Of a stretch of 64,000 nucleotides of DNA, positions 11,149-19,757 are shown piece after piece (the first letter of the stretch is position 1; each line of letters begins with the position of its first letter). The notes beneath the pieces are model-generated. The model was not told the DNA's origin. It searched no databases and saw only the letters and a program-made list of their open reading frames with translations. This stretch comes from Gammaproteobacteria bacterium (GTDB taxonomy: Bacteria > Pseudomonadota > Gammaproteobacteria > JAKDMP01): the NCBI GenBank assembly GCA_049581885.1, contig JBAUSV010000014.1:20872-84871 (forward strand). Direction: 5' to 3'. The position numbers and the translations under genes were made by a program.

Positions 11149-13293
11149 TTACGTCGAAGCCGACGATGGGGATCTGGCGGATGCGGTCGTGGCGGGGGCT
11201 GGTTTATAGCGGGCGTATTTTTTGAGCAATGCCTGAAAGCGCGGGTCGTGACGTATCGGGTCCCAGGCTGGATCGAGCCACAACAGCACGGGCGAGTAGC
11301 TCACGCCACTGCCGGGGGTGGCGAGCGCCTTTTCGAGCAGCGGCACGGCGAGGCCGGGTCGCCTGGTCTCGGCGTAGAGGCTGGCATTGAGTTCCGTCGT
11401 AGCCGGACCGGACACTCGATCCTCGTCATGGGCCACGAGCGCCTGCGATTTTTCAATGGCGGCGAGTGCTTCGCCGGTGTGGCCGAGACCCAGTTCGGCT
11501 TGGGCAACGTAGCTCCAGACTAGGCTTTCATTGCGGGCGCTGCCGGCTTGGGCTTTGAGTTGCGCACGGGCGATCGGTAGGGCTCGGGTGTACAGCGGCC
11601 TGGCGTTCGCGACATCGCCCGCCAGCCGGTACAGCTCGGCCTGCTGCAGCGCCTTGGAGTCACTGAGGAAAGAGAAGTTGTCGGGCGTGTCGGGAATGCC
11701 CTTGAGTAGAGCGAGCGCCTCGCGATATTTGCGCTGTAAGGTCAGCAGGTACACGCGTTGCGACTTCAGTTGTGGATTGTCGCCCTGCACTGCGGCCAAG
11801 GCGCGTGTCACGTCACCAGTGCGGTACAGGATGGAGCTGGAGTATTGGAATTTGGCCCGGACGTTGTCGGGATCCAGCGCCAACGCCTGCTGGGAGAGCC
11901 GTTCGGCCTCGGCGTAGCGGCGCGTCAACATGTACGTCGTGCCCAGCTCGAAGGTCAGCGCGGTATTACGCGGATCGAGTGCAAGCGCTTGTTGCATCGC
12001 ACTGGTGGCTGCATCGAAATGCCCTTGCCGGCGGAGCACGTAGCCTGTCGCCGCGAGCGCATCGACGTCATTGGGCTGCGACTTGAGTGCGGCTGCGAAG
12101 GCGCCAAGCGCGGCCGTGTAATCCTGCTTGCCCCAATAATCGCTGAAACCGATTGCCAGGTGGGCGGCAGCCAGATCCGGCGCCAGCGTGAGCGCCCGCT
12201 CGGCCTGGCTGCGCGCATCGGTCCGGAGCTGCTGGACGTCTTCGCCGCCGCCGCCGAACCAGGCGAGGAGACTTTCGACATAGGACAGGCGCGCCCGCGC
12301 CAGGGCAAAGCCCGGGGCCTTCGCGATCGCCTGGTGATACAACGGAATCGCCTGCTTCCACGATGCTGTGTCGTAGTTGATGGCGCCCTGGTTGGTGAAG
12401 TACTCGGCGCGCAGGAACAGATCGTTGGCAGACGGATTGTTGCTGAGCGCCGTGGCCAGGCGTCTGGTTTCCGTGGGCGAGAGCTTCGCCTTGAGCGCCT
12501 GGGCAATCTGTTCGGCCACCTCGCCCTCAACGCCGAACACGTTTTCCAGTGTGCGTTGGTAACTCTGGGCCCAGATGTGGTTGTCCGTGTGCGCATCGAT
12601 CAGCTGCACTTCGATCAGCACTTGGTTGCCGTCCTTTTGCACGCTGCCTTCGAGCAGGGTCGCCACGCCGAGCTGCTTGCCAACGAGGGTCAGATTCTGG
12701 GGGTGGCTGCCGTAGCTAAGCGTCGAAGTACGCGAAATGACCTTGAGATCGCCGATGTCGGCGAGTTTGGTCAGGATCAGGCCCTGCATGCCGGCCACGA
12801 AATAGGCGTTGCCCTTGTCTGCGGAGAGGTTCTCGAACGGCAGCACGGCGATGGACTTGGCGGGAATCGCGCTCGCCGTGGTGGGTGCGGCGACAGATTT
12901 TACAGGCGCCACCACCACCGCGGCGCTCGGATGCGATTGGGTGCTTAGTTGCCAGGCGAGCACGCCGACGGCAGCCACGAGAATGACAATGATGACGATA
13001 TTGAGCGTCTGTCCCACACGGCGATGGGTTCGTGCCGGGCGCGGCTCATCGGAATCGACCGATTCGGTGGGTCGCACCCCCTCGGGCGTGACCTCGAAGG
13101 CCCAAGCTAGCAGAAGCGCTACCGGGAAACCGAGCACCACAAAGCCCAGTAGCACCCTCTCGCACCAATCAGGGGCGTGAAGTGTAGGGAATATGATCGC
13201 ACCGAGCTGAAGCAACAGCCACGCCGTCACCGCATAGGCAATGGCCACGCGGTATACGTGGCGACGCTTGAGTTCGGTCAGGAACTGGATCAT
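11149..13293 (-). CDS. Membrane-anchored TPR-repeat protein with TolB-N-like periplasmic domain
   Basis: N-terminal hydrophobic region ('RHVYRVAIAYAVTAWLLLQ', 2 TM). It is followed by 'IAVLPFENLSADKGNAYFVAGMQGLILTKLADIGDLKVISRTS', a TolB_N-like motif. Multiple TPR repeats follow. No output domain is present. Confidence 0.7.
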   Translation of the reverse strand: MIQFLTELKRRHVYRVAIAYAVTAWLLLQLGAIIFPTLHAPDWCERVLLGFVVLGFPVALLLAWAFEVTPEGVRPTESVDSDEPRPARTHRRVGQTLNIVIIVILVAAVGVLAWQLSTQSHPSAAVVVAPVKSVAAPTTASAIPAKSIAVLPFENLSADKGNAYFVAGMQGLILTKLADIGDLKVISRTSTLSYGSHPQNLTLVGKQLGVATLLEGSVQKDGNQVLIEVQLIDAHTDNHIWAQSYQRTLENVFGVEGEVAEQIAQALKAKLSPTETRRLATALSNNPSANDLFLRAEYFTNQGAINYDTASWKQAIPLYHQAIAKAPGFALARARLSYVESLLAWFGGGGEDVQQLRTDARSQAERALTLAPDLAAAHLAIGFSDYWGKQDYTAALGAFAAALKSQPNDVDALAATGYVLRRQGHFDAATSAMQQALALDPRNTALTFELGTTYMLTRRYAEAERLSQQALALDPDNVRAKFQYSSSILYRTGDVTRALAAVQGDNPQLKSQRVYLLTLQRKYREALALLKGIPDTPDNFSFLSDSKALQQAELYRLAGDVANARPLYTRALPIARAQLKAQAGSARNESLVWSYVAQAELGLGHTGEALAAIEKSQALVAHDEDRVSGPATTELNASLYAETRRPGLAVPLLEKALATPGSGVSYSPVLLWLDPAWDPIRHDPRFQALLKKYARYKPAPATTASARSPSSAST

Positions 13294-13357
13294 TGTTCTA
13301 TCCCTGTCCGCTTAATCCGAACACGCTTCGTGGATTATATAGGGTTTCGTCTGATAA

Positions 13358-13389
13358 CACCTTGAATGCCTGGAAATCGTCCCCAGAAA
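13358..13389 (+). promoter_or_regulatory. Putative sigma32 (RpoH) heat-shock promoter of grpE
   Basis: 'CCTTGAA' (13360-13366), a 14-nt spacer, then 'CCCCAGAAA' (13381-13389). This fits CTTGAA-N13-15-CCCCATnTA and lies about 40 nt upstream of grpE. Confidence 0.5.
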
Positions 13390-13426
13390 GGGAGTTAAGA
13401 CGGATTTTCACGTTTCAGGAGAGAGC

Positions 13427-13972
13427 ATGACCAAGGACCCGGACCCTAAAGCCGAGGCCCAGGAAGATATGGCGCCCGGCACTGCAAGCACTCCCGAGGC
13501 CAAAGCACCATCGGAGTTGGAGACGCTCAGGGCCGAGACGGCGGAGCATCGCGAGCGCGCGTTGCGTCTGGCCGCCGAGATGGAAAATGCGCGCCGACGG
13601 TCCGCCCGTGAACTGGAGACCACGCGCCGTTTTGCGCTGGAGCGTTTCGCGTCCGAATTGCTGCCGGTGGTCGACAGCCTGGAACTGGCACTGGCGGCGG
13701 CCGAAAGTGTGCCCGAAGGGCTCGCAATGACGCTAAAGCTCCTGCGCGAAATTTTGGCGCGGCACGACATGAAAGCTGTCACGCCGCCCGTGGGCGATGC
13801 CTTCGATCCCAATCTGCACGAAGCGATGGCTACCCAGCCCAGTACGGAGGTAGCGCCGGACCATATTTTGCAGGTGGTGCAGAAAGGCTACCGTCTCCAC
13901 GACCGTCTGCTGCGTCCGGCTCGGGTGATCGTTGCCCGGGCGCCTGATGCGGCTCCGGCGCCGGACGCTTGA
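13427..13972 (+). CDS. grpE: Nucleotide exchange factor GrpE
   Basis: 181 aa with full-length GrpE similarity; the RBS is GGAGAGAG. Confidence 0.9.
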
Positions 13973-13997
13973 AAGCGCGCCCGGACGACCCCACATA
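13969..13997 (+). promoter_or_regulatory. Putative sigma32 heat-shock promoter of dnaK (overlaps grpE stop codon)
   Basis: 'CTTGAA' (13969-13974), a 14-nt spacer, then 'CCCCACATA' (13989-13997). It lies about 50 nt upstream of the dnaK ATG. Confidence 0.55.
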
Positions 13998-14048
13998 CAC
14001 AACAGTAACGGTTTTCAATCCCAGCCAGAACATAAGCGGAGAGTATTC

Positions 14049-15980
14049 ATGGCCAAAATTATCGGTATCGACCTCGGGACCACTAATTCCTGTGTCGCCG
14101 TCATGGAAGGCGGCAAGGCCCGGGTCATCGACAACAGCGAGGGCGATCGGACCACGCCGTCCATCGTGGCTTTCAGCAAGGACGGCGAGGTACTGACCGG
14201 TCAGCCGGCCAAGCGCCAGGCGGTTACCAATCCAGCCAACACGCTGTTTGCAATCAAGCGCCTGATCGGACGCAAGTTTGACGACCAGATGGTGCAAAAG
14301 GACATCGACATGGTGCCCTACAAGATCGTGAAGGCTGACAATGGCGATGCCTGGGTCGAGGCGGGCGGCAAGAAAATGGCGCCGCCGGAGATTTCCGCGC
14401 GCGTGTTGCAGAAAATGAAAAAGACCGCCGAGGATTATCTCGGCGAGCCGGTCACCGAAGCCGTGATCACGGTGCCGGCGTACTTCAATGATTCGCAGCG
14501 CCAGGCCACCAAGGATGCCGGCAAGATCGCCGGCCTCGAGGTCAAACGCATCATCAACGAGCCGACCGCGGCGGCGCTCGCCTATGGACTGGACAAAAAG
14601 CGCGGAGACCAGAAGATCGCGGTCTACGACTTGGGTGGGGGCACCTTCGACATCTCCATCATCGAGATCGCCGAAGTGGACGGCGAGCACCAGTTCGAAG
14701 TGCTGGCGACCAACGGCGATACCTTCCTTGGTGGCGAAGACTTCGACAAGCGCGTCATCGACTACTTGGCCAAGGAATTCGAGAAGGAACAGGGCATGGA
14801 CGTGCGCAAGGATCCGCTCGCCATGCAGCGCCTGAAGGAAGCGGCCGAGAAGGCCAAGATCGAGTTGTCTTCGGCACAGCAGACCGAAGTCAACCTGCCC
14901 TACATTACCGCCGATCAGAACGGGCCCAAGCATCTCAACGTGAAGCTCACGCGGGCCAAGCTCGAGGCGTTGGTGGAGGATCTGATCGAGCGTACGCTCG
15001 TGCCGTGCAAGACGGCGCTCAAGGATGCCGGCCTCTCGGTCTCTGATGTAAATGAAGTGATTCTGGTCGGTGGTCAGACACGCATGCCCAAGGTGCAGGA
15101 AGCGGTGAAGGACTTCTTCGGCAAGGAAGCGCGCAAGGACGTGAATCCGGACGAGGCGGTGGCGGTCGGCGCCGCGACTCAGGCCGGCGTGCTCGGTGGC
15201 GACGTGAAGGATGTGTTGCTGCTTGACGTGACGCCGCTCTCGCTCGGCATCGAAACGCTGGGCGGTGTGATGACCAAGCTCATCGACAAGAACACCACGG
15301 TGCCCACCAAGGCGAATCAGGTGTTCTCCACTGCCGACGATAATCAGACCGCGGTGACGGTACACGTGCTCCAGGGCGAGCGCGAAATGGCGAACGCCAA
15401 CAAGTCGCTCGGCCGTTTCGATTTGAGCGATATTCCGCCGGCGCCGCGCGGCATGCCTCAGATTGAGGTGACTTTCGATATCGACGCCAACGGCATCCTG
15501 CACGTTTCGGCCAAGGACAAGGCCACAGGCAAGGAAAACCGCATCGAGATCAAGGCCTCTTCGGGTTTGAGTGAAGAGGAAGTGGAGCGCATGGTCAAGG
15601 ACGCTGAGGCGCACGCCGAAGAGGACAAGAAGACGCGCGAGTTGGTGGATACCCGTAATCAGGCGGACGGACTGGTGCATGCGACCGAGAAATCGCTCAA
15701 GGATCTGGGCGACAAGGTCGAGGCGTCGGAACGGGCCGATATCGAAGCGGCGATCTCCGAACTCAAGGAGGCGCTCAAGAGCGACGATAAGTCGCGTATC
15801 GAGACCAAGTCTTCAGCGTTGGAAGAGCATTCTGCGAAGCTCATGCAGCGCGTCTATCAGGACGAGGCCGCGAGCGAAGCCGAGGCCGCCGAGCATAATA
15901 AGGACGGCGCCGGGCCGGGCAGCCCGGAGGATGTGGTGGATGCCGAGTTCGAGGAAGTCAAGGACGAGAAAAAAGGCTGA
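14049..15980 (+). CDS. dnaK: Molecular chaperone DnaK (Hsp70)
   Basis: '[18 protein letters not shown]...' is a canonical Hsp70. The ATG at 14049 has a GGAG RBS. The ORF-track start at 13932 is a 5' over-extension. Confidence 0.97.
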
Positions 15981-16010
15981 TCCGGTCAACCGGCACAGAG
16001 GCGGGTGTCC

Positions 16011-16032
16011 GCAGGCGACGCCTGCCTTTTTG
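16011..16032 (+). terminator. Intrinsic terminator/attenuator hairpin downstream of dnaK
   Basis: Stem GCAGG (16011-15), loop CGACG, stem CCTGC (16021-25), followed by CTTTTTG. Confidence 0.5.
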
Positions 16033-16051
16033 TGCATGATGGAGGGAGCGC

Positions 16052-16633
16052 GTGAAAACCAGCCGTCTCGAGGCCTTTAGTGACGGCGTTATCGCCATCA
16101 TCATTACCATCATGGTGCTGGAATTGCGGGCACCGTCCGGGGAGGCCGCCAGTTTTGATGAGTTGATACCATTGTTACCGGTGTTTTCGAGTTATGTGCT
16201 GAGCTTTCTTTATGTTGGCATCTACTGGAATAATCACCATCACATGTTGAATGCCACTGACCGGATCAACGGCGGCATTCTGTGGGCCAACCTGCATTTA
16301 TTGTTCTGGCTTTCCCTGTTCCCGTTCGTAACGGCGTGGACGGGTGAGCACCGTTTCGCCGAAGTGCCCACCGTGCTTTATGGTGTTGTGTTGTTGATGG
16401 CGTCCATTGCTTACTTTATTCTGCAGCGCAGCATCATTGTGCATAACGGACGCACATCGAAACTGGCGCAAGCCATCGGACGCGACACGAAGGGCAAACT
16501 ATCCACGGTAGCCTATGCGCTGGGTATCGCATTGGCCTTCATCAATTCGTGGGTGGCTAACGGGATTTTCTTGCTGGTCGCGCTGATGTGGCTGGTGCCC
16601 GACCGCAGAATCGAGAACAGGATCGGAGTATGA
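16052..16633 (+). CDS. DUF1211 / TMEM175-family putative potassium channel
   Basis: GTG start with a GGAGGGA RBS. The '[21 protein letters not shown]' signature (RxxxFSDG on TM1) and the overall 6-TM-like, 193-aa architecture match bacterial TMEM175 homologues. Its stop overlaps the dnaJ ATG (ATGA). Confidence 0.8.
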
Positions 16634-17772
16634 GCGAACAGGATTATTATGAGACTTTGGGCGTCAAGCGCGGCGCGACCCAGGCTGACATCAAGAAGGC
16701 CTACCGGCGGCTTGCCATGAAGTACCACCCGGATCGCAACCAGGGGGATGCGGGTGCGAGCGACCGTTTTAAGGAAATCAACGAAGCCTACGAGGTGTTA
16801 AGCGACGATCTGAAGCGCGCCGCCTACGATCAGTTCGGCCATGCCGGAGTGAATCGCGGTGGCGGAGGCAGACCAGGTGCAGGTGGTTTCGGCGGTTTCG
16901 GGGACGGTGATCCGGGCGATATATTCGGAGACATATTCGGCGATATTTTCGGCATGGGCGGGGGCACGCGCCGGACCCGCCGTGGTGCCGATCTCAAGTA
17001 CACCCTCGCCGTCACGCTCGAGCAGATTGCGCGTGGCGAGGAAGTCACCATCGAGGTGCCGCGGCACACGCCCTGCGAGCATTGCGGCGGCAGCGGCGCC
17101 AAGCCCGGCAGCAAGCCGCAAACGTGCAGGACTTGCGGTGGCCAGGGGCAGGTGCGCATGCAGCAGGGCTTCTTCACCCTCCAGCAGACCTGTCCGGACT
17201 GCCGTGGCCGCGGCGAAATCATCACCGAGCATTGCCCGGAATGCCATGGCAGCGGGGTGGAGCGCACGATCAGCAAGCTCAAGGTGCGGATTCCGGCCGG
17301 AGTGGACGACGGTACTGCGATCCGTCTCTCCGGCCAGGGCGAAACGGCGGGTTCGGGTGGAATCGCGGGCGACCTGTACGTGGAGATCCGCATTAAGCCG
17401 CATTCGATCTTCCACCGTGAAGGCGCGCACCTGGTTTGCGAGCTGCCGATCAGTTTCGCCACCGCCGCACTCGGCGGCGAACTGGAAATCCCGACGCTGG
17501 AAGGAGAAGGGCGGCTCAAGATCCCGGTCGGCACCCAGAGCGGCAAGCGGATGCGGGTACGCGGCAAGGGATTGCCCCTGCCGGGTGGCGCGAAGGGCGA
17601 TCTGTTCTGCCTCGTGAGGGTGGAAACGCCGGTCAATCTGACCGAGGAGCAGAAGCAGCTGATCAGCGACCTGGATGCCAAGTTGAGCGCCGACGGCAAG
17701 CGGCATAAACCGGCGGAACACGAGGGCTGGGCAAGCAAGCTGAAGAACTTCTTCGAGCAGTTGGCCGGATGA
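16630..17772 (+). CDS. dnaJ: Molecular chaperone DnaJ
   Basis: J-domain (HPD motif), a G/F-rich linker with a [13 protein letters not shown] repeat, and four CxxCxGxG zinc-finger repeats. Confidence 0.95.
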
Positions 17773-18560
17773 GCGTGCCGGCACCGCTTCGTATCGCAGT
17801 CGCCGGCGCCAGCGGGCGTATGGGCGGCGAACTGGCGCGCCTGCTGGCGAGCGATGCTGAACATTACCGGTTGACGGCTGCCTGGGTCGGCACTGGCAGC
17901 AGCGCATTGGGACGGGACATGGGTGAACTGGCTGGAATCGGTGTGATGGGTGTCGCCTGCAGCGCGAACGGTGATACGAACGCTGAAGTGGATGCGGTTA
18001 TGGATTTCTCTACGGTGACTGCTACACCCGCTGTGGCACGTGCCGCCGAGGCCCGCGGAGCGGCCCTGATCAGCGGAGTCACCGGTCTCGACGCGGCAGC
18101 GCATGCGGCACTGGCCGAAGCCGCACGCCGCGTGCCGGTGCTGCACACCGACAATTTCAGCCTGGGCGTAGCCGTGCTGAAGGAACTGGCGGTGTTGGCC
18201 TGCGAACGGCTGGGCAGCGGCTTCGACATCGAAATCAGCGAGGCGCACCACCGCGGCAAACGCGACGCGCCATCGGGAACCGCGCGCATGCTGGGCCGGG
18301 CCCTGGGAGATGAACAGGGCCGCATCCGCACCGGTGCGCGCGACGGGAGTGAAATCGGCTATTCGGTGCGCCGAGGCGGCAACGTAATCGGCGAACATAC
18401 CGTCAGTTTCCTGGGTCCCCACGAAAGGCTGGAACTGACACACCGTGCCGAAGACCGGTCGCTTTTTGCCTCCGGAGCGCTGTTCGCAGCCCGGTGGCTG
18501 GTGACGCAACCGCCCGGGCAATACACGCTCGAAGACAGTATCGCGCGCGACGGCGATTGA
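17769..18560 (+). CDS. dapB: 4-hydroxy-tetrahydrodipicolinate reductase
   Basis: '[11 protein letters not shown]' Rossmann motif with DapB-wide similarity. There is a 4-nt overlap with dnaJ. Confidence 0.9.
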
Positions 18561-18653
18561 TCGCGCCGCCGGCGGCCTCTAAAATGGGCGTCGTTTGTGC
18601 GTTGGCATGCGGGGATTCCTCTCCGCGACGCGTTCTGACCTAACGGGGGTTGA

Positions 18654-19756
18654 GTGTCCAAACCAGCCATACTTGTCCTGGAAGACGGTACCAGCTTCCG
18701 GGGCGTGTCGTTCGGTGCGCCCGGCTGTGCGGTAGGAGAGGTCGTGTTCAACACGGCGATGTCGGGCTACCAGGAAATACTGACCGACCCGTCCTATGCC
18801 CGCCAACTGGTCTGCCTGACTGCTTCCCATGTCGGCAATGTCGGTGTCAACGCTGCCGACATGGAATCGGACCGCATTCATACCGAGGGCCTGATCGTGC
18901 GCGCGGCCTCGCCCGAACCGTCAAGCTGGCGGGCGGAAGGGTCGCTGAATGAATGCCTGACTGCCGCCGGCCGTCCCGCCATTGCAGAAATCGATACCCG
19001 GCGCCTGACGCGGCACCTGCGCACCCGGGGGGCGCTTAGCGGGTGCCTGGCGACCGGCATGGACGAATCCGAAGCGCTGGTGCGGGCCCGCGAATTCCCC
19101 GGCCTGCTGGGCATGGATCTGGCCGCCGCGGTCAGCTGCGATAAACCCTATACCTGGGACGAGGCGCCGTGGGATAGCGAGCTCGCGCCGGCGCGTTTCC
19201 GCGTCGTGGTGTACGACTTCGGAGTCAAGCGCAACATCCTGCGCTGCCTGGTAGGTCACGGGTGCAGCGTCGAAGTGGTACCGGCGAAGACTCCCGCCGC
19301 CGATGCGCTGGCCATGAAGCCGGACGGTATCCTATTGTCCAATGGTCCGGGTGATCCCGATGCCGCTGTGTATGCGATAGACACGGCCCGCGAGTTGCTT
19401 GAATCGGGTATTCCGATCCTGGGCATCTGTCTTGGCCATCAGCTCTTGGGATTGGCCAGCGGCGCGAAGACGGTCAAGACCAAGTTCGGTCATCACGGTG
19501 CCAATCATCCCGTGCTCGATCTCGATACCCGGCAGGTCTGGATTTCGAGCCAGAATCACGGCTTTGCCGTCGATGCTGACAGCCTGCCGGATACGCTGCG
19601 TACCACGCACGTCTCGCTGTTCGATGACACGCTACAGGGCATGATTCGCACCGACACGCCCGCCATCGGTTTCCAGGGCCACCCCGAGGCGAGCCCCGGG
19701 CCGCACGATGTGTTGCCCATCTTCGAACGTTTTGTCAGTCTCATGGAGTCCAACTG

Positions 19757-19757
<1 letters not shown>
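18654..19757 (+). CDS. carA: Carbamoyl-phosphate synthase small (glutamine amidotransferase) subunit
   Basis: GTG start; GATase class I motifs ('GICLGHQLL') and a CarA N-terminal domain. Confidence 0.93.

Follow-up and report, generated by a model that had tools for sequence, protein, structure and literature searches.

The 64,000-nt stretch analyzed here (the window) comes from contig JBAUSV010000014.1 of a gammaproteobacterium and carries a gene for a TMEM175-family membrane protein between the heat-shock genes dnaK and dnaJ (Table 1). An earlier note on this DNA had singled the gene out as an ion channel gene embedded in a heat-shock operon, and the Pfam HSP70 and DnaJ domains of the neighboring products confirm its position; the ATGA overlaps that the note described, of the TMEM175 gene with dnaJ and of dnaJ with dapB, are both seen in the sequence. 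The gene follows dnaK after a 71-nt spacer and lies, as a cistron of 582 nt, between the hairpin in that spacer and dnaJ. We regard a channel gene in this place as a real departure, previously undescribed, from an operon that is otherwise very well known.

The product of the open reading frame (ORF) is clearly a TMEM175 protein of the single-repeat kind, and within that known family it is ordinary. Its match to the TMEM175/DUF1211 profile PF06736 covers the whole profile (positions 1-88 of 88) and scores 108.1 bits (E = 3.1e-31) against a curated cut-off of 25 bits, and its homologs carry the annotation "TMEM175 family protein"; NCBIfam holds no model for it. A chance ORF is ruled out by >8000 homologs at E < 1e-5 and by a ratio of nonsynonymous to synonymous divergence (dN/dS) of 0.085 relative to the 96%-identical ortholog in L001 (surveyed loci are cited by L number). 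A phmmer search of the PDB aligns residues 2-180 with CmTMEM175 of Chamaesiphon minutus (5vre; E = 2e-15) and also matches human TMEM175. The AlphaFold2 model, built from 50 homologs with a predicted local distance difference test score (pLDDT) of 74.7, has six long helices (residues 5-24, 35-68, 74-99, 104-132, 146-162, and 166-181), in agreement with the six transmembrane (TM) segments that the note had counted in the 193-aa product. When the model is compared with the PDB by Foldseek, the best match is 5vre_A (TM-score 0.78 over 185 columns), ranks 1-16 are TMEM175 structures, and no other family is found among the significant matches.

The RxxxFSDG signature reported in the note is present on TM1 as R5-L-E-A-F9-S10-D11-G12 and aligns to R12...F16-S17-D18 of 5vre. 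Invariant positions in the 50-homolog alignment are R5, F9-S10-D11-G12, A15, I16, T19, and W59-x-N61-H62-H63-H64. I16 is aligned to the I23 constriction of the Cm channel (a bulky hydrophobic gate), and in the register given by the FSD motif R5, D11, A15, I16, T19, and W59 correspond to R24, D30, A34, L35, T38, and W74 of MtTMEM175 from Marivirga tractuosa (6HD8), in which L35 is the gate and T38 is the most conserved residue and required for K+ selectivity (PMC7176437). All family features that can be checked in silico are present in the protein. It is presumably a homotetramer with TM1 lining the central pore, and the label "K+/H+ leak channel" used in the note would apply by homology; the bacterial homologs assayed to date have K+/Na+ permeability ratios (PK/PNa) of ~2-4 or are K+-selective (PMC10216561).

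Table 1. Coordinates of genes and sequence features in the grpE-carA region of the window
Feature	Position	Strand	Remarks
Sigma32-type motif before grpE	13361-13385	+	CTTGAAT-N13-CCCCAGAA
grpE	13427-13972	+	Pfam GrpE, E=4e-46
Sigma32-type motif before dnaK	13968-13993	+	CTTGAAA-N14-CCCCACAT; overlaps grpE stop
dnaK (Hsp70)	14049-15980	+	Pfam HSP70, E=2.4e-271
Hairpin (15997-16029) with U5 tail (16027-16031)	15997-16031	+	GC-rich, terminator-like
Shine-Dalgarno GGAGG of TMEM175 gene	16041-16045	+	6 nt before GTG; read from sequence
TMEM175-family channel gene	16052-16633	+	GTG start, 193 aa, single 6-TM repeat; PF06736
ATGA overlap of TMEM175 stop TGA (16631-33) and dnaJ ATG (16630-32)	16630-16633	+	
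dnaJ	16630-17772	+	Pfam DnaJ, DnaJ_CXXCXGXG, DnaJ_C
ATGA overlap of dnaJ stop and dapB ATG	17769-17772	+	
dapB	17769-18560	+	Pfam DapB_N, DapB_C
carA	18654-19757	+	

A DnaJ-based scan of species-representative genomes gave 80 loci; the relatives discussed here are metagenome-assembled genomes (MAGs) or metagenome contigs. The dnaK-dnaJ spacer is empty (-1 to 253 nt, no gene) in ~65 of the 75 resolved loci, and the non-carriers include Steroidobacteraceae, Methylococcales, Nitrosomonas, Neptuniibacter, and Burkholderiales. We found the order dnaK-TMEM175-dnaJ at L001, L004, L005/6, L007, L008, L010, L013, L037, and L167-L171, and further at L043, L054, L070, L097, L136, and L175/6. The closest homologs of the channel protein (96%, then 76%-71% identity) are all encoded between dnaK and dnaJ (L001, L004, L005/6, L167/8, L169, and L171), and eight further carriers came from the DnaJ scan (L007, L008, L010, L013, L037, L043, L054, and L070), all of them uncultured Gammaproteobacteria MAGs. 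In the DnaJ and DnaK+DnaJ trees, carriers make up the entire clade of the window (clade A), whose sister L009 is without the gene, and much of a second clade (clade B), where L034, L046, and L051 are without it. Two more lineages carry the gene: a distant host (L175/L176; DnaJ 51% identical) with dnaK-TMEM175-ATGA-dnaJ, and L097, described below.

Seen from the side of the channel family, the arrangement is scarce as well. A metagenome survey of TMEM175 returned 80 close relatives, 66 of them with enough downstream sequence; dnaJ adjoins the gene in two of the 66, and the other 64 sit elsewhere. Placement of a TMEM175 gene between dnaK and dnaJ is thus uncommon both in the family and among proteobacteria, but certain lineages have conserved it. 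The word "unusual" in the earlier note holds for bacteria at large; in the immediate clade of the window the arrangement is universal, and it recurs in other lineages. The note had allowed that universality in the clade would make the insertion conserved and not novel, and since this is what the neighborhoods show, we treat it as a conserved clade trait and not a one-off insertion.

At L097, TMEM175-ATGA-dnaJ is preceded by a chimeric ORF ending in the C-terminal tail of DnaK; the order there (L097:690-1037) is a gene for an FAH-family hydrolase, a 116-aa ORF, a perfect 11-bp hairpin, TMEM175, and dnaJ, and the 116-aa ORF has a signal-peptide-like N terminus and the DnaK tail DDVVDAEFTEVKDDGKV at its end. 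A rearrangement has deleted most of dnaK at this locus and spared the TMEM175-dnaJ pair. At L004 (6516-7714), dnaJ seems 5'-truncated, the domain calls being limited to DnaJ_C and a portion of the zinc finger; dapB is missing, and the opposite strand has an ORF of 190 aa. Indel errors in the long-read contig or a real disruption may be responsible.

Outside the dnaK-dnaJ spacer the genes next to TMEM175 vary. A general link of the family to stress genes was considered and rejected, the 71 same-strand neighbors of non-embedded copies being heterogeneous, with no Hsp70 or DnaJ; among them are a dienelactone-hydrolase-type (DLH-type) hydrolase (six times), DsbA (three), and OsmC (two). Two non-embedded copies (P0077 and P0068; L173:2840-4582 and L172) stand directly after a Glyco_transf_9 gene of the lipopolysaccharide (LPS) heptosyltransferase type, in an LPS-core/sugar-epimerase cluster. 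A 68%-identical copy (P0018; L177:2455-8319) is surrounded by four IS110-family transposase genes, annotation places homologs of 65%-70% identity in Acidobacteria, Nitrosotalea (archaea), and Alphaproteobacteria, and a Bacteroidota-like context also occurs among the homologs. Judged from these sequences, the TMEM175 subfamily looks horizontally mobile among soil microbes. One non-embedded copy has, ~1.3 kb upstream of it, a gene whose product is a remote J-domain protein (30% identity with DnaJ; L093:2027-2713), probably by coincidence.

Besides the value for L001, channel dN/dS is 0.136 relative to L005, and within clade B it is 0.135-0.17. The values for dnaJ are similar, and dN of the channel gene keeps pace with that of dnaJ; the channel gene is therefore inherited vertically under purifying selection within each clade. 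Its base composition is somewhat apart from that of its surroundings (G+C 0.53 and third-position G+C, GC3, 0.68, vs. 0.60-0.65 and 0.71-0.80 in the flanks). A recent horizontal transfer as the explanation of the low G+C was rejected on the grounds that divergence and dN/dS track dnaJ and that clade B has no GC3 difference.

In two genomes the gene is found in decay. In L012, sister of the carrier L013, the 186-nt dnaK-dnaJ spacer (L012:3879-4067) holds an in-frame remnant of 33 codons, MGKGRLEAFSDDVLAVII followed by WFVPDQRIGRVLLI, made up of the first 18 and last 14 codons of the channel gene, with hairpin, Shine-Dalgarno sequence, start codon, and ATGA intact; this is a clear deletion scar. 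In L007, the closest species-level relative (DnaJ 90%), a 141-nt in-frame deletion with flanking ATTCTG microhomology has removed TM3-TM4 (L007:1028-1468). The L007 gene is a mosaic, its 5' part like the L005 allele and its 3' part like the window allele, and the coverage of this contig is only ~1x, so an assembly artifact is possible.

The trees bear on whether the embedded genes go back to one insertion or to several. Neighbor joining of TMEM175 recovers group A in 35 of 40 bootstrap replicates and group B in 40 of 40, and A and B together in none of the 40; the quartet analysis is star-like (50%). These origin trees rest on ~190 aa and on neighbor joining and quartets, not on maximum likelihood. 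Identity between A and B is 62% for TMEM175 and ~57% for DnaJ, values in line with each other. The host of L008 belongs to clade A (DnaJ 82%), yet its TMEM175 allele is divergent (~61% identical), and the copies of P0017 and L097 cluster with non-embedded sequences at ~75% identity. Transfer of the cassette by recombination in the conserved flanks was rejected, since carriers did not show excess similarity to one another in the 3' part of dnaK or the 5' part of dnaJ. One sublineage has an extra gene between dnaK and TMEM175, encoding a four-helix bundle of 106-119 aa (L167:3535-3894 and L168:74-394) that matches PF05635 (23S_rRNA_IVP) and TIGR02436 and, weakly, Avd-like proteins; the dnaK-dnaJ slot therefore accepts other cargo. 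The embedded genes may descend from an old insertion followed by many losses and outward transfer, or a permissive slot may have captured such genes, or exchanged one for another, more than once.

The heat-shock promoter motifs that we could recognize lie upstream of grpE and dnaK. CTTGAA-N12-17-CCCCA has exactly two matches in the 64 kb (0.13 expected), before grpE and before dnaK. The dnaK site conforms to the sigma32 promoter type (CTTGAAA, 13-17 nt, CCCCATnT), and no other + strand site in the window matches the sigma32 consensus as well (13 of 14 positions). The motif before dnaK is kept in L001, L004, L005, L037, and L043 and at many loci without the insertion, and that before grpE has matches at the same position in related loci, again both with and without the insertion. 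None of the surveyed loci, with or without the insertion, has a sigma32-type motif before the channel gene or dnaJ; in the window, no sigma32-like site was found in 15400-16700 and no sigma70-like site in 13000-18556. The sole sigma70-like match in 13000-19000 (TTGATC-17-TAAAAT at 18557-18585) falls just after dapB and before carA, which suggests that the unit from dnaK to dapB ends there and that carAB starts anew. CIRCE/HrcA control was rejected, with no CIRCE (controlling inverted repeat of chaperone expression) element anywhere in the window.

The hairpin after dnaK (core 16000-26) has a folding energy of -22.4 kcal/mol (z = -3.3), and a consensus terminator scan also marks it as terminator-like; in the window it is a GC-rich stem-loop with a U tract, as in a Rho-independent terminator or attenuator. 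The note was right that a hairpin precedes the gene; the distance from its end to the start codon is 22 nt instead of 20, and the coordinates that the note gave for it (16011-16032) take in merely the inner part of the stem. Rfam yields a single tRNA match in the 64 kb and no known RNA family, tpke11 included, in the spacer. By per-sequence folds, the embedded relatives and most of those that lack the insertion have a hairpin of different sequence at the same place; the spacers are too divergent between clades to align, and RNAalifold returned nothing. Since carriers and most non-carriers share such a hairpin, it is an ancestral feature of the spacer, downstream of which the channel gene was inserted. 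The U tract in relatives is mostly 2-4 U or absent, and a clade-wide terminator function is doubtful; the hairpin is probably an attenuator or a 3' stabilizer of the dnaK message. In the non-carrier L014, almost all of the 149-nt dnaK-dnaJ spacer (L014:4852-5000) is one near-perfect palindrome (-98 kcal/mol), possibly an insertion resembling repetitive extragenic palindromes (REP) or miniature inverted-repeat transposable elements (MITE).

In E. coli, dnaK and dnaJ are transcribed into a dicistronic message whose spacer is structured, and the band of dnaK alone predominates (PMC3082872). With no sigma70- or sigma32-like site between dnaK and dnaJ of the window, the only route in sight for dnaJ, a gene that has to be expressed, is read-through from the dnaK promoter across hairpin and channel gene, and dnaJ, hence the channel gene, most plausibly depends on it. 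The sequence is compatible with co-transcription of the channel gene with dnaK and dnaJ (same strand, 71-nt spacer, ATGA, no promoter-like site), which we infer together with heat induction. The co-regulation proposed in the earlier note is strengthened by the location of the sigma32 motifs, before grpE and dnaK only, and by the lack of promoter-like sites between dnaK and dnaJ, short of proof.

The junction with dnaJ points to a possible second level of linkage. The 4-nt ATGA overlap is found in most embedded relatives and is retained in the L012 scar, and translational coupling across it is possible. Both decay events (L012 and L007) are in frame, with start codon, Shine-Dalgarno sequence, and ATGA junction kept, which fits selection on translation running into dnaJ. 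As a signal of coupling, such frame-preserving decay is suggestive only: there are two events, with a chance expectation of ~1 in 9.

We favor, at a probability of roughly 0.6, a functional TMEM175-type channel that is an internal cistron of a sigma32-driven dnaK operon, with attenuated co-expression with dnaJ and dapB and translation into dnaJ. The product would be a TMEM175-type cation channel, weakly to moderately K+-selective like the characterized bacterial relatives. Transcripts would start from the heat-shock promoter upstream of dnaK; most of them would probably end or be trimmed at the hairpin that follows dnaK, and a read-through fraction would carry TMEM175, dnaJ, and dapB. The channel would be translated from its own ribosome-binding site; ribosomes ending at its stop would find themselves on the dnaJ start codon, so that translation of dnaJ would be at least partly coupled. 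Channel levels would be low and would rise with DnaJ under heat or proteotoxic stress. Such co-regulation may be adaptive or merely tolerated.

Several observations weigh against this reading. The hairpin with its U5 tail resembles a competent intrinsic terminator, so read-through could be small, and a weak or non-consensus promoter may lie in the 3' end of dnaK. dnaJ has an AGGA of its own at good spacing (7 nt 5' of its ATG, within the channel gene), and coupling is thus not obligatory; in L043, L054, and L169 the channel gene and dnaJ stand 64-130 nt apart. Loss or disruption of the channel gene has occurred several times (decay in L012 and L007; absence from L009, L034, L046, and L051, which belong to carrier clades or stand next to them), so that the gene is dispensable and the linkage not essential. 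The mixed neighbors of the non-embedded relatives include no chaperones, and some details of the comparison could be assembly errors in the MAGs and contigs that provide the relatives.

Part of the same evidence bears on a functional channel that is a mere passenger, its gene placed there by chance when it inserted into a permissive spacer and retained because of the risk that excision poses for dnaJ expression; co-regulation would then be tolerated, with no functional link to the chaperones. Repeated loss or decay of the gene speaks for this, as does a family that has no association with chaperones (2 of 66 metagenome relatives) and lies instead beside hydrolase, DsbA, OsmC, and LPS genes, and that is mobile (65%-70% identity across phyla, one copy between IS110 transposases), and as does a spacer open to other cargo (the four-helix-bundle gene of L167/L168). 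However, the arrangement persists under purifying selection in lineages whose DnaJ is just 51%-58% identical, and several distinct TMEM175 lineages (A, B, L008, P0017, and L097) are found in this one slot with an identical ATGA junction, which would argue for selection if they are independent captures. We consider such an accident possible, on balance doubtful.

The functional linkage of channel and chaperones that the earlier note envisaged is a hypothesis. In its adaptive form, the channel would belong to the chaperone regulon, be induced through sigma32, and have entered the dnaK-dnaJ slot on more than one occasion; when heat makes the membrane leakier and proteins unfold, a brief, small K+ (or H+) conductance would help to reset membrane potential, cytoplasmic pH, or K+. 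We rate this as rather unlikely. The ATPase of Hsp70 depends on K+, and one may speculate about a K+/H+ conductance when heat perturbs the membrane, or about a K+ supply for that ATPase.

It is improbable that the channel gene belongs to a separate unit, in which the hairpin efficiently ends the dnaK message and TMEM175-dnaJ-dapB are transcribed from an unrecognized housekeeping promoter that lies within the 3' end of dnaK or closely follows it, without heat induction of the channel. The dnaK operon of Bacillus subtilis has a comparable internal vegetative promoter before dnaJ, and both the strong stem with its U5 tail and the lower GC3 of the channel gene, which suggests modest expression, agree with such a unit. 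Against it stand the lack of sigma70- or sigma32-like sites in 15400-16700, the weak or absent U tracts of most relatives, and the presence of the same hairpin where dnaK and dnaJ are directly adjacent; moreover, as the gene begins 22 nt after the hairpin, the promoter would be upstream and its transcripts must still cross the hairpin. A recently acquired island or decaying pseudogene without function in this genome is very improbable and already disfavored, since the low G+C and the decay seen in L007 and L012 are outweighed by an intact frame of 193 codons with every invariant family residue, by dN/dS and a divergence in step with dnaJ, by junctions without repeats or mobility genes, and by a GC3 equal to that of the flanks in clade B.

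The remaining window is ordinary core chromosome (acrB, rmuC, ftsJ, ftsH, nuo genes, and gyrA). In the carriers L004, L005, and L169, hrcA lies directly upstream of grpE; this is not so in the window, where, as in L001, a divergent gene for a 714-aa membrane-anchored tetratricopeptide repeat protein (window 11149-13293, - strand) is in its place.

In humans, TMEM175 is studied intensively as a K+/H+ channel of lysosomes and as a gene that affects the risk of Parkinson's disease. For the prokaryotic channels, a 2023 review states that the physiological function is unknown (PMC10216561). In the literature that we searched, we found no ion channel between dnaK and dnaJ and nothing linking TMEM175/DUF1211 to dnaK or bacterial heat shock, and the structural papers on CmTMEM175 and MtTMEM175 do not, as far as searched, discuss operon context. 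The position between dnaK and dnaJ hints at a stress-linked role for the bacterial family. If the adaptive reading were true, it would give the first physiological role for any prokaryotic TMEM175; a position in a heat-shock operon held under purifying selection is a testable lead as to whether bacterial TMEM175 acts in heat or proteotoxic stress and whether K+/H+ flux enters into chaperone function. For operon biology, the locus is a clean natural case in which a foreign cistron has come to lie between two essential partners that are translated together, and in-frame decay scars suggest that selection preserves translation into dnaJ. If the linkage is mere hitch-hiking, this is an ordinary gene-order variant.

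CmTMEM175 and MtTMEM175 are characterized bacterial TMEM175 K+ channels, to which the protein of the window is 28% and ~15% identical, respectively. All three have a single 6-TM repeat (~190-230 aa) with RxxxFSD on the pore-lining TM1, a gate residue (I16 in the window, I23 in Cm, and L35 in Mt), and, in the window and Mt, the conserved Thr (T19 and T38). The operon likewise resembles the canonical sigma32 genes grpE and dnaK-dnaJ (E. coli dnaKJ with its tpke11 spacer; the Pseudomonas-type order grpE-dnaK-dnaJ-dapB-carAB) in its sigma32-type -35/-10 motifs before grpE and dnaK, its structured dnaK-dnaJ spacer, a dnaJ without a recognizable promoter of its own, and dapB-carAB downstream. It differs from them in the membrane-protein cistron between hairpin and dnaJ, joined to the dnaJ start by ATGA. 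Extra non-chaperone cistrons are found in other dnaK operons, as in hrcA-grpE-dnaK-dnaJ-prmA-yqeU-yqeV of B. subtilis and dnaK-grpE-dnaJ-dafA of Thermus thermophilus, where they are co-transcribed with the Hsp70 genes and where expression is made to differ by hairpins or internal promoters. Those genes lie after dnaJ or code for soluble factors, unlike the channel gene of the window, which stands between dnaK and dnaJ and encodes a membrane protein.

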